Source of the DNA: Escherichia phage SDYTW1-F1-2-2_3
Length of the DNA stretch: 64,000 bases
Sequence record: OR296290.1
Reading direction: 5' to 3' (one strand)
The first letter of the stretch is position 1; each line of letters begins with the position of its first letter. Shown one piece after another: positions 10,974-24,210 of the stretch. The notes beneath the pieces were generated by a model. The model was not told the DNA's origin, did no database searches, and saw only the letters and a list, made by a program, of their open reading frames with translations. The position numbers were made by a program, and so were the translations under genes.

Positions 10974-11077
10974 AACTGCCTCCTATTTGATTTGGCGCAC
11001 CGTGTAGGACTCCAACCTACAACCCATTTCTTAGAAGGAAATTGCTCTCTGCAATTGAGCTAACGGCGCAGAATTAT

Positions 11078-14409: not shown

Positions 14410-14853
14410 CTACTTAACCCTTGCCTCTTTGATGGGGTCAATGTATTTCTCAACGCCCCATTTATGTTTACTGTCTGCGTAGAAAACATCAGGCGCACAC
14501 TGGCTTGTCTTAGGAAAAGCCTGAGGGTCTTTCGTGCTACCTTTAAACTTCTGTTTACCACGGGTGCGACCATTACAGAAGATTTCTAACTTCTTCTCCT
14601 CTTCTGTTTTAGCTCCCCCGCTCTTTAACAAAGAACGTTTATGATCAGCTAACAATAACGCATCAGCACGATGAACGCGATGGCCTACACGCTTTGCCAC
14701 ACTAGAAGGAATATGGGATTCAGCTTCAGCCTTTGCAGCACGACGTTTTAAACTGCGCTTACTAACGTGATTAGTTGCCTTTGGCTTCTCTTTTTCTAGT
14801 TCAGAGATAGAGAAACAGCGACCGCCCTTCATGCTGATTTTAGATTTAGCCAT
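14410..14853 (-). CDS. basic protein, hypothetical
   Basis: 147 aa, Lys/Arg-rich; ATG with AAGGAA SD. Confidence 0.5.
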   Translation of the reverse strand: MAKSKISMKGGRCFSISELEKEKPKATNHVSKRSLKRRAAKAEAESHIPSSVAKRVGHRVHRADALLLADHKRSLLKSGGAKTEEEKKLEIFCNGRTRGKQKFKGSTKDPQAFPKTSQCAPDVFYADSKHKWGVEKYIDPIKEARVK

Positions 14854-15573: not shown

Positions 15574-15675
15574 CTTTGATTAGATTCTTTGATTAATGCA
15601 CTAAATCAATGCACTGATAAAAGAAAAGGCGCTACCCGTTAAGATAGCGCCTTATGCTTATTTGAATTATCTTAC

Positions 15676-16575
15676 TTATGCTGCCTGACGTGCCGCCATA
15701 ATCTCAGCTGCCTTGCGCAATACTTCTTCTTCTTCTGCTTTCGCAGCTTGTTCGGTACGGGTAGCAACCGTTGAAGAGATACGACCGCGCAGACTTTCTA
15801 ACTTCTCCTGCATAGCTGCAACAACCTTTTCCATTTCATCAGCGTATGAATCAAGTGATTCTAATTCCTTGCTTGATGCGTTCATCAGATAATCGTCAGA
15901 GATCGCTACCGTTGAAGCCGTGACTTTCTTGATGAGTGAATCAAAGGACTTTTTAACTTTCCCCACTTCTTCACTCAAGGCAATAGTATTATCACTGGTA
16001 GCGCCATTACGCTCATCAGCCAACAATTTGGCTTCGATACGGATTGCATTCAAGCGTTCAACTAAAGCGTAAATATCTTGGTTAAAATCTTCCTTGTTTT
16101 TCGCCGGGATTTGCAGATGGGCAGCCACGTTGTCATTGCAACCTTTGTAAAAATTAGGGTTATCGACTTCAATTTCACGGCCTAAAGCAAAGTTTTCGAA
16201 AGCATTTGACCAGCGAGCGCGGTTTTGTTCCATTTTGGCCTTAATTTGCGCTTCTTTCGCATCTTCTTTCGCTTTCGCTTCACCTTCCAGATTAATCCAC
16301 TTCTTACGACCATTCGCCGCATCAGTGTTAAACTTGATAGGAGTTAAGAAAGTGATTGCAGTGGCGATCACATCCATATCGCGGAAACGTTCGGTTAACA
16401 GGAAATCAACCGCCGACTGCAATACATCTAACTTCTTGCCGTTGCTACGGAAGTGCTGCAAGTGCCCTAACAGAAAATTAGAAACATCTTGTTTGATCGC
16501 CGCGTTATTACTACGAATGTTGTTAGCCAGTGCGTTAAAACCAGATTCTTTTACCAGATTAAAAATTTTAGCCAT
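15676..16575 (-). CDS. hypothetical coiled-coil protein
   Basis: Track ORF begins at GTG (16584); ATG at 16573-16575 with AAAGGTG SD preferred; Ala/Glu/Lys-rich C-terminus. Confidence 0.5.
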   Translation of the reverse strand: MAKIFNLVKESGFNALANNIRSNNAAIKQDVSNFLLGHLQHFRSNGKKLDVLQSAVDFLLTERFRDMDVIATAITFLTPIKFNTDAANGRKKWINLEGEAKAKEDAKEAQIKAKMEQNRARWSNAFENFALGREIEVDNPNFYKGCNDNVAAHLQIPAKNKEDFNQDIYALVERLNAIRIEAKLLADERNGATSDNTIALSEEVGKVKKSFDSLIKKVTASTVAISDDYLMNASSKELESLDSYADEMEKVVAAMQEKLESLRGRISSTVATRTEQAAKAEEEEVLRKAAEIMAARQAA

Positions 16576-17396
16576 GATATTCACCTTTCAATTGTAAGGG
16601 CACTATGCCCCGCTCTCTATGAGCTTTTTAAGTCGCCATTGACTTATCGATAATCACTCATTGTTAAGTAATTATTGATAAGCGGGGCGGTCTTGTCAGG
16701 AGTTAACCTTGCCGCCCCCTTATCCGTGATGTTTCATCTGGTATCTTTAATTAGTCGCTATAAACGAAGCCGACCTGATAGCGATGATCAATCATCACAA
16801 TAAGGCTATGCGTCCGACTCTATTTAATTACATTACTGTAACCGTCGGCAATATCGTTTACTTTGCTTTCGCTCCCGCCTATCCTTTTATATCAGCTCTC
16901 TTTCGCTAGTCATCGCCCACTATGGGATACTATTGCGAAAGAGTCACTAACCGCCTACTATTCCGGCGTTTTATATCTTTCAGCAGGTTTACTACATAAA
17001 CCGGCTATGTACTTTCATCGTAAGACGAATCTCAAGCCGTTCACATCGTAAACGTTCGCACTAAACCTTATTGTTAAATAGCAATTTGCCATTCTTTAAC
17101 CATCCCCCACCGCCCTCAATTGGGCGTTAATTCGTCGGACTCGTCTGCCCTGATAAACTTCTTCACTGTAGCACCTTGTTAGCGATGGCTGCCGCTACCC
17201 TTAACCGTGGGCGATTAGCTTAAGCCGTTGCGTGTACTCAATGTATCCGCTTATCAGTGGCGACTTTTCCAGTTAAGGGATTGTAAAGCTGTTTACCCTG
17301 ATATTTTAGGGAGCCTTACACCGTTTTATCTGGTATGTTTTCCGATGGTTATTATCATCAAACATATGCAACCGATATATGGGAACGTTTAAATTA

Positions 17397-18155
17397 TTAA
17401 AGAGCGGTAAATCTGTCAGTGTGCTTTCTCACACTACGCAACTGTAAGCCGTTGTTTCGCTTTTCACTGAAGCGGTGATTTGCCTAGTGAGTACGCTCAT
17501 TATGGACCATGATGTTTTCGCTGTCAACCGCTTTTTTAATCTTTTTCGTCGTTCCCGCTATTGGGAGGATATATCAACCAGCTTTATTTGATTGAAGATT
17601 AAGCGGTGAGGCTTAACTCATGATTCACATTGTTAAAGAGCGTTTAGCCTTTTATAGTGTCTGCTAATCACTGCATCATTAAAGGCTTACTTATTCATTA
17701 ACGGGGCGCCTAAGCCCGAACTAATCGCCGCACTGTGTGCCACCTTTCCCGCGATACGTTGATTTGGGAACTAGTTAACGTTGTTTTGTTAACTTGTGGT
17801 TAGTATGAACTACCTTAACCACGTTTGCAACCTCTTTTTTATCATCTTCTTTTATTCTTTTCCCTTATCTCGCGTGAGTCTATGCGAAAGGGCAAGATGA
17901 TAAGTTTTTAAAGAGCGGGATGCTTTAAGTCATCGCTGACTATGCTCACTATATATCAGGCTATTTTCGGTGTCAATACTCTTTTTAAGAATATTTTCAC
18001 TTTCTAGCCTGATTTTTAAAGAGCGGGGCAATTTCTTGCCTTGTATGTTTTTCATCGTACCCGATGAATTGAAGTATACGCCAACCAGTGAGTAATGCAA
18101 TAGGGTAGGGCAAATTATTTTAAACTTTTTCACTATAGGAAGATAAAAGAGCGGG
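17397..18155 (+). repeat. five dispersed direct repeats of TTAAAGAGCGG(G) in a non-coding region
   Basis: Copies at about 17397, 17633, 17905, 18013 and 18144; inverted copy CCCGCTCTC at about 16608. Confidence 0.6.
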
Positions 18156-18254
18156 CGCACGTGATACATCAAAGGAAACGGCTTGTAAAGCGATATTTAG
18201 CGGCCTAAAACGCACTGTAGCGAGCTAAAAGGGAGTAAGGTATACAATCACCTT

Positions 18255-18284
18255 AGAAAAGAAAAAAGCCTCATAGTGAGGCTT
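18255..18284 (-). terminator. rho-independent terminator (minus strand)
   Basis: AGCCTCA-TAG-TGAGGCT hairpin; on minus strand followed by TTTTTTCTTTT. Confidence 0.6.
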
Positions 18285-18360
18285 ATAGGAAGGATTTAAA
18301 GCATCAGATAGATTATGACCATAGGCATGACCACGGCACAATAAAGGAGAAAGATTAAGC

Positions 18361-18726
18361 CTATGGATTTATACACTGACCGTTACCGGATTCCATTTCA
18401 TTCATAGACTCATCAAAGAGCGTCAACGATGAGCGCATCAAGTGATCAACCGTAATTTGTTTGCCAGTGGTTTCATTTACCAGTTGAATAGTTTTATCAT
18501 ATGATTGTACATGTTCGAAATCATTTACATGTAAAATAATAACCTTCGGTGACTTTTTACCAGTATCATAGTTTTCTACAATATAGGTGCACTGTAAACC
18601 GTCAACCGTAGCAGGGGAAAACGTTGCAGCCTTAACGCTACCCATAGCCGACAGCAGGACACCTAACAGGAGAACAACCAGAAAGAAGCCTACAAATACT
18701 TTCACTACGAATTTAATAATACCCAT
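18361..18726 (-). CDS. membrane/secreted protein (signal-anchor)
   Basis: Track start is TTG; ATG at 18724-18726 with AAAGGT SD; hydrophobic FVVKVFVGFFLVVLLLGVLL N-terminus. Confidence 0.45.
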   Translation of the reverse strand: MGIIKFVVKVFVGFFLVVLLLGVLLSAMGSVKAATFSPATVDGLQCTYIVENYDTGKKSPKVIILHVNDFEHVQSYDKTIQLVNETTGKQITVDHLMRSSLTLFDESMNEMESGNGQCINP

Positions 18727-20163: not shown

Positions 20164-20570
20164 ACGGGGAACATACAACCGCAGAACAGACCACGGGGAA
20201 ACATAGCAAGATAGTGCGGTAATAATATACCACTTAAATAATTGTATAACTCAAACATCAAAGACCATTCGCTACGCTCATGCACGCTGAAAAAGAAAGT
20301 AATAAAAGAAATAATAACATACATCAATCATTATCCACTTAATTAATACATACATCATTATTGCACTCATAATCATCACTATTGAAACTATTTACATTCA
20401 AACTATGGGGAACGTGGGCTATTACTTATGGGTATTATATCGCCTTAAACTATTGGTACAGTGAGGGACTAGCCTTTCTCTCACTCAGTAAAGGGGAACT
20501 AAATAAACGGGTAGGTAATGAATAGGATGGTATACACGGGGAAAGAATAACGGGGAGTAGGCACGGGGAA
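20164..20570 (+). repeat. ACGGGGAA-type G-rich repeats flanking an AT-rich core with a DnaA-box-like TTATCCACT
   Basis: Copies at about 20164, 20193, 20406, 20492, 20536, 20550 and 20563; TTATCCACT at about 20331. Confidence 0.55.
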
Positions 20571-22668: not shown

Positions 22669-24210
22669 ATGTCATTAGATAAACAAATTTATGAAGCTCT
22701 AACTGGTAACAATCTTAGTGTAGAGGAAAAGAAAGCACTATTGAATATGTTGAAAGAGCGTGACCAATGGAGGAAGTATAATAGGATTTTGTCTTTCAAG
22801 GCGTATGACTTCCAAAAGAAATTTTATGCAGCAGGATTGAAGCATCGCTTTAGATTCTTGTGTGCAGCGAACCGTGTTGGTAAATCTTATAGCGAGGCAT
22901 ACGAGTTTGCTTGTCATGTCACAGGTCGCTACCCAACTTGGTGGACAGGATATAAATTTAAAAGACCTATCTTAGCATGGGCAGTTGGTATTACAGGGGA
23001 TTCCACAAGGAAAGTATTGCAAAAGGAATTGTTTGGTACACCTATCGGAAAGGATACAAACTTATTAGGGACAGGTGTCATTCCTCGTGATGCTATCGTC
23101 ATTGATACGATAGAACGAGATGGTAACAAACTTCAAATCGTACAAATCAAACATCAAAATGAGAGAGGAGAGTTTGACGGTTTAAGTACATTAGAATTCC
23201 GTTCAACCCAACAGGGTGAACACACATTGATGGGTGCAACAGTTGACTACATTTGGTTAGACGAAGAAGACCCATACGAGTCTATGGCTATATTCGCACA
23301 GTGCGTCACACGTACACTCACAACTAAAGGTCTAGTTACAATTACAGCTACACCAGAGAACGGTTTAACTGAACTGGTAGATAAATTTATGAAAGGTGAA
23401 GGGGATGAGAACACAGGTTCTCTATATTTCCAGAATGCTTCTTGGTGGGATGCTCATGCAGACCTAGGTGGACACATCACTGACCAAGATATAAAAGATA
23501 TGACTGAAGGTATTCCAGCGTGGCAGTTAGAGATGCGTTCAAAAGGTATGCCATTGTTAGGAAGTGGTTTGATTTATGATGTATCGGATGACACAATTAA
23601 ATGTGAACCATTCGAAATTCCTGATACGTGGAAACGTGTCTGTGCAATTGATATTGGTATTGATCACCCAACTGCTGCTGTTTGGACAGCTTACGACGCA
23701 AACACGGATACTATCTATGTTTACGACTCATATAAAGAAGGTGGCTTTACTCCAGTGTATCATGCTCCAGCTATTAATGGTCGTGGTCAGTGGATTCCTG
23801 TCATCCTACCGCATGATGCGGACAATACTGAGAAAGGTAGTGGCTCATCTGTTGCTCAATTCTATAAGAATGCAGGAGTTAACGTACAGAGTGAGACCTT
23901 CTACAACAAAATTGGAATGGATGGTAAAAAGAACTTCTTTGTAGAACCGGGAATCACAGATATCCGAGAAAGAATGATGAGTGGACGCTTTAAAGTCTTT
24001 AACACAGCCGCTAACGCTAAGCTATTCGAAGAGAAAGCTAGATATCACCGTAAGGTTGGTAAGATTATTAAAGAACATGATGACTTAATGGATGCAATGC
24101 GCTATTCAGCTTGCTCTGTTACACATCGTGGTCGCTCTAAGCATGATGTTAGCTACGGAAGCGCTTCTTTGTATGAGGCAAACGTAAGCAGATGGAATCA
24201 GAGCTACTAA
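22669..24210 (+). CDS. terminase large subunit
   Basis: 513 aa; Walker-A-like AANRVGKSY; size and position before portal; strong GGAGGAAG SD. Confidence 0.8.
   Translation: MSLDKQIYEALTGNNLSVEEKKALLNMLKERDQWRKYNRILSFKAYDFQKKFYAAGLKHRFRFLCAANRVGKSYSEAYEFACHVTGRYPTWWTGYKFKRPILAWAVGITGDSTRKVLQKELFGTPIGKDTNLLGTGVIPRDAIVIDTIERDGNKLQIVQIKHQNERGEFDGLSTLEFRSTQQGEHTLMGATVDYIWLDEEDPYESMAIFAQCVTRTLTTKGLVTITATPENGLTELVDKFMKGEGDENTGSLYFQNASWWDAHADLGGHITDQDIKDMTEGIPAWQLEMRSKGMPLLGSGLIYDVSDDTIKCEPFEIPDTWKRVCAIDIGIDHPTAAVWTAYDANTDTIYVYDSYKEGGFTPVYHAPAINGRGQWIPVILPHDADNTEKGSGSSVAQFYKNAGVNVQSETFYNKIGMDGKKNFFVEPGITDIRERMMSGRFKVFNTAANAKLFEEKARYHRKVGKIIKEHDDLMDAMRYSACSVTHRGRSKHDVSYGSASLYEANVSRWNQSY

Follow-up and report, generated by a model that had tools for sequence, protein, structure and literature searches.

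Why should a densely coded phage genome carry a 1.8-kb stretch without a gene? The question is raised by positions 16,576 to 18,360 of a 64,000-nucleotide (nt) piece of DNA from Escherichia phage SDYTW1-F1-2-2_3 (sequence record OR296290.1), the whole of which is here called the window. A preliminary description of this spacer had noted five direct copies and one inverted copy of a short repeat, a GC-rich inverted repeat and a terminator, and had offered as candidate roles an origin of replication with iterons, a cluster of promoters or of binding sites for a phage or host factor, or a template for non-coding RNA. The second proposal was essentially right, the promoters being separate sigma-70-type elements, and the third was, if anything, too modest, with about 860 nt in a covariation-supported fold. 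Taken together, our results suggest that the spacer probably serves as control region and leader for a self-contained early unit that resembles a ribosomal RNA (rRNA) operon in its layout and recruits the Nus antitermination machinery of the host. The repeat itself is best read as an RNA-level boxA site for host NusB-S10, downstream of promoters, and the array appears to feed a large, structured and deeply conserved RNA of 858 nt that is undescribed in Rfam 15.

About 97 Escherichia and Shigella podophages, all from the subfamily Gordonclarkvirinae (genera Kuravirus, Suseptimavirus and Nieuwekanaalvirus; type phage phiEco32), match the spacer and its flanking sequence at 87-92% identity. The phiEco32 counterpart is the interval between genes 124 and 125 (record positions 72787-74730), about 2.8 kb from the right genome end. 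Because all surrounding genes in the window lie on the minus strand, the spacer is to be read on that strand. Between a 299-amino acid (aa) gene downstream (ATG at 16575; mechanical open reading frame (ORF) 15676-16584) and a 121-aa gene upstream (18361-18726), only scattered ORFs of 31-80 aa occur, none of them in 16585-18360 conserved, and the spacer is left unannotated in most of the ~97 related GenBank records. Across an alignment of 33 distinct genomes the variable sites of the spacer showed no 3-base periodicity, whereas the neighbouring gene, which served as the positive control, had 89, 58 and 253 variable sites by codon position; neither of these marks of protein coding, a conserved open frame and a 3-base rhythm of substitution, was thus found in the spacer, and a scan of it for transfer RNA (tRNA) genes was negative. 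The claim that the stretch is free of genes therefore stands, also in the face of the tiny ORFs in a few relatives' records, which are unconserved and carry no coding signature.

What, then, is the repeat? With at most one mismatch, TTAAAGAGCGG starts on the plus strand of the spacer at 17397, 17633, 17908, 18016 and 18144, so that all five direct copies are present, at start-to-start spacings of 236, 275, 108 and 128 bp rather than the 236, 272, 108 and 131 bp first given. Six matches occur in the window against 0.94 expected, a number reached in 0 of 100 shuffles. On the transcribed minus strand the repeat reads (C/A)CGCTCTTTAA(A/C/T)AA, and four of the five copies (numbers 1 to 4 below) are perfect matches to GYTCTTTAANA, the gamma-proteobacterial boxA consensus derived by Baniulyte et al. 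(PMC5725501), which is found six times in the window against 0.56 expected. The copies, together with a hairpin that accompanies the first of them, are as follows.

17395-17405, minus strand: boxA copy 1, GCTCTTTAATA, a consensus match
17418-17435, minus strand: boxB-like hairpin AGUGUG-AGAAAG-CACACU, 11 nt upstream of boxA copy 1
17631-17641, minus strand: boxA copy 2, GCTCTTTAACA; GCTCTTTAACAAT is identical at 13 of 13 positions to the rrnB leader boxA
17906-17916, minus strand: boxA copy 3, GCTCTTTAAAA, a consensus match
18014-18024, minus strand: boxA copy 4, GCTCTTTAAAA; GCTCTTTAAAAATC is identical at 14 of 14 positions to the E. coli rrnB 16S-23S spacer boxA
18144-18154, minus strand: degenerate boxA-like fifth copy, CGCTCTTTTAT, off the consensus

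Elsewhere in the window, an exact copy of the motif at 14618-14628, in opposite orientation within ORF 14410-14853, is replaced by CCGCTCTGTAA in most relatives and is probably a product of chance or coding constraint; a consensus match at 24066, within or antisense to an ORF, was treated as chance. The inverted copy reported near 16608 corresponds to 16606-16619, which is indeed 93% complementary to 18017-18030 but reads CGCTCTCTA, off the consensus, and belongs to two small hairpins (helices 37 and 38) of the RNA described below.

The resemblance to the host signal is close to literal. Direct reading of the E. coli rrnB operon gave cacTGCTCTTTAACAATTTATC as its leader boxA and tttGCTCTTTAAAAATCTGG as its 16S-23S spacer boxA, and when the whole phage spacer was compared locally with the rrnB leader, 16S and spacer sequences, essentially the boxA elements alone matched, with window 18024-18011 aligned to the spacer boxA (14/14) and 17641-17629 to the leader boxA (13/13). 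Among the relatives identity extends to 18-19 nt and takes in ACAAUUUA, the NusA-binding spacer that follows boxA (PMC2724277). Most relatives carry at copy 1 GCTCTTTAACAATTTA, which equals the rrnB leader boxA plus the NusA-binding spacer; SU7 carries GCTCTTTAACAATTTATC, identical over 18 of 18 positions to rrn boxA plus that spacer; and one metagenomic relative has both host versions, as ACTGCTCTTTAACAATTTA and ACTGCTCTTTAAAAATCTG. Furthermore, the phage elements contain the rrn-type extra U, a mark of the high-affinity rrn or consensus boxA that is missing from the lambda boxA, CGCUCUUA (PMC2724277).

Every relative keeps the repeat, in three to five copies per genome, while the spacing varies from genome to genome. 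Orientation is invariable: among the 33 genomes the consensus falls 128 times on the transcribed strand of the spacer and never on the opposite strand, and the corresponding count in nine distant contigs is 24 to 0. Copy 1 lies in a block, GATAGATTTACCGCTCTTTAAYAATTTAAAC, that is invariant in all 33 genomes, copy 2 marks the start of a homology block that is colinear in all relatives, and the fifth, degenerate copy is present in some relatives only (ECBP2, NJ01). The boxA core, GCUCUUUAA, is unpaired in minimum free energy (MFE) folds of three cassette transcripts, with a few flanking or leading bases paired in some. Several cassettes have a small hairpin immediately 5' of boxA, which is the order seen in rrn leaders. 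Directly before copy 4 this is a GGCAA-GAAA-TTGCC hairpin, which forms in the MFE fold and leaves the boxA unpaired; before copy 1 it is the boxB-like hairpin listed above, which is helix 2 of the structured RNA, shows compensatory changes (UA/CG/AU/GC) in three of six pairs, and likewise follows the rrn-leader order.

Promoters were scored as matches out of 12 hexamer positions, with the flank scan extending up to 200 nt upstream of boxA. A sigma-70 promoter scoring at least 10 of 12 was found in this interval for 91 of 130 boxA copies, often at 15-50 nt, and boxA follows the -10 element at a variable distance of 15-200 nt. Four promoters or candidates can be read in the window, here in order of transcription.

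18073-18100, minus strand: candidate promoter P1, TTGCAT-16-TATACT, with an A-rich upstream tract, read from the sequence
17948-17976, minus strand: promoter P2, TTGACA-17-TATAGT, 11/12, from the promoter scan and SU10 Table S2
17802-17830, minus strand: candidate promoter P3, TTGCAA-17-CATACT, 8/12, with a preceding A-tract, weak and read from the sequence
17499-17527, minus strand: promoter P4, TTGACA-17-CATAAT, 11/12

P1 is weaker than P2 and P4 and falls below the thresholds of the promoter scan. The -10 element of P2 ends 31 nt before boxA copy 3, and in other genomes a far stronger promoter than P3 (e.g., TTGACA-16-TAGAAT) lies 15-24 nt upstream of boxA copy 2. The hexamers of P4 are essentially invariant, its -10 being identical in 33 of 33 genomes, and its transcript is predicted to start near 17492. 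The authors of the SU10 genome had independently predicted three sigma-70 promoters and a terminator in the same spacer, with no mention of boxA or of an RNA, and a passage of PMC12276001, citing Pavlova et al. 2012, assigns transcription of early phiEco32 genes to the sigma-70 holoenzyme. The promoter-proximal part (17650-18360) is a mosaic between genomes, with cassettes gained and lost. Within it the cassettes behave as modules (loci L001-L039), three to five per genome in varied combinations and some with insertions of ~180-480 bp, and these differing combinations suggest frequent recombination between cassettes; SU7, PAS59 and MLP3 have a 66-aa ORF in this part.

The limits of the unit are set by two intrinsic terminators, between which lie the structured RNA and a single protein gene.

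18266-18284, minus strand: intrinsic terminator (8-bp GC-rich stem, then a T-run), also among the annotated features of SU10 and 4E8
16597-17454, minus strand: conserved structured non-coding RNA, 858 nt with 38 helices, whose 5' end includes boxA copy 1 and the hairpin before it
15676-16575, minus strand: gene for a 299-aa protein, homologue of phiEco32 gp124 (phrog_13018), with no assigned function
15626-15653, minus strand: intrinsic terminator closing the unit (12-bp stem, then a T-run), with annotated counterparts at this place in 4E8 and SU7

The first of these closes the upstream terminal operon (homologues of phiEco32 gp128-gp125) and is the minus-strand terminator that had been placed at 18255-18284. 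The terminator scan found none between the promoter/boxA cassettes. Since there is no internal terminator and a strong one follows the gene, the unit comprises the promoters and boxA copies, the 858-nt RNA, one protein gene and a terminator.

The core of the RNA (17454-16597) ends just before AAAGGTGAATATCATG, the ribosome-binding site of the 299-aa gene, which is thus directly 3' of the RNA. Around it, the colinear block 16585-17645 retains 72-93% identity across the 33 distinct sequences at lengths of 1096-1111 nt, is nearly free of insertions and deletions (indels), and has about 457 variable columns without 3-base periodicity. RNAalifold was run on a structure-blind MAFFT alignment of these sequences. 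For the transcribed strand it gave -246.4 kcal/mol and 256 pairs, 76 with compensatory double changes, compared with -156 kcal/mol and 49 compensatory pairs for the opposite strand, -79+/-9 kcal/mol and 5-18 such pairs for 12 column shuffles, and -77.5 kcal/mol and 10 such pairs for the adjacent protein gene from the same genomes, used as a coding control. The RNA therefore has what is generally expected of an evolutionarily conserved structured RNA, namely compensatory pairs above controls, on one strand. The core holds 223 pairs in 38 helices, canonical in 99.6% of 7355 pair cells. Double changes affect 72 of the 223 pairs (466 cells), whereas shuffles gave 32.9 pairs and 117 cells and attained the observed level in 0 of 500 trials; when partners were slid by 1-3 columns, the number of such pairs fell to 4-12. 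Many pairs are divided almost evenly between two Watson-Crick types (e.g., CG:17/UA:16, AU:17/GC:16), while for the invariant helices (e.g., 3, 4, 5, 8, 31) the comparison neither supports nor contradicts pairing. The GGGGCGG...CCGCCCC inverted repeat, earlier located at about 16683-16720, is helix 33 of this fold, pairing 16684-16690 with 16712-16718 and showing compensatory changes in five of seven pairs. A possible pairing of the RNA with the first codons of the 299-aa gene (repeats I2/I6) was rejected, its changes being one-sided and the pairing unrecoverable in distant relatives.

No Rfam 15 model matched at the gathering threshold anywhere in the window, and at E<=10 there were merely far-sub-threshold matches (12-20 bits against cut-offs of 34-167); the described families GOLLD, ROOL, OLE, HEARO, group I/II introns, RNase P, 6S and tmRNA were accordingly unmatched at that threshold.

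How deep is the conservation of this arrangement? Metagenomic contigs as long as 96 kb were found by a protein search to encode homologues of the 299-aa protein, at 68-70% and at 46-49% identity. At all nine such loci, 1.4-3.4 kb without called genes precedes the 299-aa homologue and contains two or three consensus boxA elements on the transcribed strand, most of them behind TTGACA-type promoters. The distance from the last boxA to the ATG is 870-936 nt at these loci and 830 nt in the window. The order of the module (promoter/boxA array, RNA of ~850-930 nt, 299-aa gene, terminator) is thus kept at 46-70% protein identity. Distant sequences were aligned structure-blind, which probably understates conservation. 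Even so, sequences at 54-61% nucleotide identity keep 69-81% of the pairs in the window (33-47% in slid controls) and show 48-63 compensatory changes relative to it (12-33 in controls), and sequences at ~50% identity keep 57-63% of the pairs. A covariance model built on a 120-nt sub-domain of the RNA (16990-16871) recovered four of the five relatives of the 68-70% group, at the same distance from the gene (E=1e-25, 6e-19, 2e-8 and 2e-4), with E=0.12 for the fifth; it had zero matches in the 46-49% group, elsewhere in the window, or in the last 30 kb of the distantly related Salmonella phage 7-11. The boxA cluster was also absent from those 30 kb, where the early genes of that phage lie. When IMG/VR was scanned with two words of the RNA, 16 and 17 nt long, the matches were the five known Kuravirus contigs and otherwise chance ones in unrelated coding sequence, and a 25-base conserved pattern had zero matches in 185,579 bacterial and archaeal genomes. 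Collectively, the comparisons suggest that the phage subfamily and its uncultured relatives share a conserved early unit that resembles an rRNA operon and combines a boxA array with a large structured RNA. Five of the metagenomic contigs (L069, L071, L072, L074 and L081; 15-96 kb) have a gene-free stretch of ~3.0-3.4 kb upstream of the 299-aa gene and are without the small terminal operon found in the window; in L071 and L072 the stretch adjoins divergent genes that include a terminase (Terminase_6N/6C).

Several smaller observations concern the boxA elements and the RNA. Just downstream of boxA copy 4, TAGAAAGTGAAAA at 17994-18006 (minus strand) is identical at 13 of 13 positions to part of the 16S-23S spacer of E. 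coli rrnB, which, with the 14/14 match of the boxA itself, hints that the cassette was derived from or is converging on host spacer sequence. A 20-nt inverted repeat, 80% complementary, joins 17944-17963 and 18005-18024; in P1 transcripts, boxA copy 4 and its downstream flank could pair through it with the P2 -10/start region and so modulate the availability of this boxA. Within the structured RNA, the boxA-like TGCTATTTAACAAT at 17070-17083 (minus strand) is invariant in all 33 genomes and partly included in helix 18. It departs from rrn boxA by a C-to-A change at the position altered in the defective lambda boxA16 mutant, and may be a decoy or a non-functional relic. Weak and far sub-threshold Rfam matches to Yersinia sRNA 197 fall in the boxA segments 17384-17442, 17620-17689 and 17895-18061; this model may overlap an rrn-leader-like boxA region.

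These features can be assembled into a mechanism. After entry of the DNA, host sigma-70 polymerase would start at up to four tandem promoters, strongly at P2 and P4 and weakly at P1 and P3, and a boxA, in several cassettes preceded by a small hairpin, would soon appear in each nascent transcript. Host NusB-S10 would bind the boxA RNA and, with NusA, NusG and SuhB, render the polymerase Rho-resistant and fast-elongating. The modified polymerase would then cross ~0.9-1.5 kb of untranslated RNA, making and perhaps helping to fold the 858-nt RNA, before continuing into the 299-aa gene and stopping at the intrinsic terminator. The boxA elements are placed as this scheme expects, on the transcribed strand, downstream of a predicted promoter and upstream of the RNA, and from boxA copy 1 to the next ATG the transcript runs for 830 nt without a coding signal. 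Besides suppressing termination, the Nus complex speeds elongation and chaperones the folding of rRNA. Protection of long untranslated RNAs, namely rRNA and CRISPR arrays, from Rho is an established property of the boxA/Nus complex (PMC7665894).

The parallel with the E. coli rrn operon is extensive: tandem sigma-70 promoters with A-rich upstream tracts, a hairpin before boxA, boxA and spacer sequences identical to the host leader and spacer versions, and a long, highly folded untranslated RNA thereafter. However, the phage has three to five promoter/boxA cassettes in place of one leader and one spacer boxA, no GU-rich boxC-like element was recognised in it, its RNA is unrelated to rRNA (boxA being the sole significant sequence match), and a protein gene shares the transcript, in the genome of a virulent phage. 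Lambda nut offers the precedent of a phage that uses boxA RNA and host Nus factors for processive early transcription, but the lambda boxA needs N bound to a downstream boxB, whereas the phage studied here has the full consensus rrn-type boxA with hairpins upstream. The lambda-type nut arrangement was thus not found, the conserved hairpins all lying upstream of boxA; an N-like protein was neither searched for nor required. For CRISPR arrays and the leader of suhB (Stringer et al. 2020; Baniulyte et al. 2017), a consensus boxA between a promoter and a long untranslated RNA likewise serves to block Rho or acts otherwise through Nus factors, although these are single chromosomal copies and not an array in a lytic phage that feeds a structured RNA. 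As for position, the early genes of T7 are preceded by promoters A1-A3, clustered in a non-coding leader at the end of the genome that is first to enter the cell, and T7 thus shares with the present phage several strong host-type promoters in a non-coding stretch near a genome end; to our knowledge T7 has neither boxA nor a large structured RNA.

Some observations weigh against this account. P1 and P3 are weak promoter matches, and the fifth boxA-like copy departs from the consensus. In helix 3 of the RNAalifold structure, an invariant GGCGG is paired with the CCGCU of boxA copy 1 and shows zero covariation; this helix, if real, would compete with NusB-S10 for that copy. The transcribed strand yields an RNA rich in G and poor in C, which may therefore be a poor Rho substrate in any case. 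Finally, one boxA is enough in rrn operons, so that the presence of three to five calls for a further explanation, such as one copy for each promoter or the titration of factors.

This last point is the strength of the alternative that survives best, in which the boxA transcripts act as a sponge: they would soak up NusB-S10 (and SuhB), host rrn antitermination and ribosome synthesis would collapse, and shielding of the phage's own transcript would be secondary. Every genome places three to five consensus boxA elements behind several promoters, beyond what one transcript needs, the copies are of consensus strength with the high-affinity extra U, and over-expressed boxA transcripts reportedly compete for NusB (Friedman et al. 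1990). On the other hand, the last boxA has a fixed position and an invariant context before the RNA in every lineage, which fits a role in cis, and with no terminator between the cassettes, the copies share a single read-through transcript instead of being spread over many short decoys. We therefore regard a sponge as an unlikely main function. The two roles are not mutually exclusive, and titration of Nus factors away from the host rrn operons is plausible as a second role of an antitermination array.

Less probable still is a transcription-primed origin, with the promoters and folded RNA providing a primer or R-loop in the manner of ColE1 RNA II or the T4 and T7 origin transcripts and with the repeats as part of the origin architecture. 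Such an origin would be in keeping with the large size of this non-coding region, its strong promoters and its highly structured transcript, and the literature examined does not mention where these phages begin replication. However, the GC-skew turn expected of an origin is absent from the spacer, the sole turn lying at ~20.2-20.4 kb; no marked AT-rich unwinding element is present (GC 0.37-0.45); no recognised initiator gene adjoins, the flanking genes having no assigned function; and the repeats, spaced irregularly and differently in each genome (108-275 bp), match an RNA-level signal exactly and on the transcribed strand only. The iteron origin first suggested is not supported either, given the same irregular spacing, the tie of the copies to the direction of transcription and the position of the skew turn.

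It is very improbable that the repeats are DNA-level operators or iterons, bound by a phage or host protein that regulates the early promoters. An 11-15-bp motif repeated near promoters invites this idea, and the early promoters have to be silenced as infection proceeds, a task that gp79 performs by binding RNA polymerase. The known shut-off factor thus acts on the polymerase and not on DNA, and the motif lies 15-200 nt downstream of the -10 and not over the -35/-10 elements, is neither palindromic nor ever inverted (128:0), and equals host boxA plus the NusA spacer base for base. That the spacer once was, or still is, coding sequence, its small genes turned into pseudogenes or overlooked in annotation, is scarcely credible, since the 30-60-aa ORFs listed in EK5, CHD5UKE1, 101114UKE3 and NJ01 (there as 'cathepsin') differ by record and lie on both strands, no frame is open across genomes, the variable sites lack the 3-base periodicity of the neighbouring gene, substitutions are paired across helices, and ~1.07 kb is almost free of indels.

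What the RNA made by this rRNA-operon-like unit does is a separate matter. It could be a cis-leader for the 299-aa gene or a stable trans-acting RNA. That it represents a new class of large, autonomously functional phage RNA, beyond a mere leader, is an attractive possibility in which we have limited confidence. In that case the first minutes of infection would see the RNA synthesised in large amounts, with antitermination of the rRNA style and chaperoning during transcription. A role in trans might be that of a scaffold or a decoy, with ribosomal proteins, assembly proteins or host defence factors as partners. The RNA might combine with the co-transcribed 299-aa protein into a ribonucleoprotein, or assemble with itself as ROOL and GOLLD do. 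With GOLLD, ROOL, OLE, HEARO and raiA it shares the 600-900 nt size class, many covariation-supported helices and the want of an assigned function, and with GOLLD and ROOL the association with phage genomes. It differs in matching no Rfam 15 model, in occurring in culturable E. coli podophages, and in its place in a defined early unit, with boxA before it and a specific protein gene after it. The gene for the 299-aa protein is found in the same 97 phage records; the protein had sub-threshold coiled-coil matches alone in Pfam and zero matches in a sequence search of the PDB, and its AlphaFold2 (AF2) model (pLDDT 74) found fold relatives solely within its own family.

Among the 20 top-ranked matches of a literature search, whose coverage did not reach the original phiEco32 papers, none joined boxA or NusB with phiEco32, Kuravirus or SU10, and the BASEL, YF01 and svsR papers do not mention the spacer region. 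If our reading is correct, boxA/Nus antitermination, known from rRNA operons, lambdoid phages, suhB and CRISPR arrays, would extend to a virulent phage that employs tandem copies of its host's rrn-type signal and shows no trace of a nut arrangement of the N type, and there would be a testable explanation of how a phage affords ~1 kb of untranslated early RNA. The ~860-nt RNA has unusually strong comparative support; large ornate RNAs are rare and mostly without assigned functions. Phages that carry it, the BASEL isolates Bas86-94, form plaques on engineered E. coli K-12, and because its promoters, signals and partner gene are defined, deletion, probing and cryo-electron microscopy should be straightforward; were it to prove autonomous, this would be the first genetically tractable E. 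coli system for dissecting an 'ornate' RNA and its biogenesis. Additionally, the annotation of about 100 deposited genomes, which show an empty gap or spurious mini-ORFs at the spacer, can be corrected.

Other features of the window were noted in passing. The 121-aa ORF upstream of the spacer (18361-18726, minus strand) is labelled 'terminase' in many GenBank relatives by way of phrog_13168. Pfam gave no terminase match for the protein, whose N-terminal segment is hydrophobic; the label looks like an error copied from record to record, and the 513-aa ORF at 22669-24210 (plus strand) is the likelier large terminase. At ~20200-20400 the turn in GC skew coincides with a switch of gene orientation from minus to plus. 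This region corresponds to the junction of the linear genome ends, terminal repeats being annotated there in 4E8 and YF01, so that the window and the phiEco32 map differ by a circular permutation. Finally, a single tRNA-Arg (anticodon TCT) lies at 10993-11069 on the minus strand, as reported for phiEco32-like phages.

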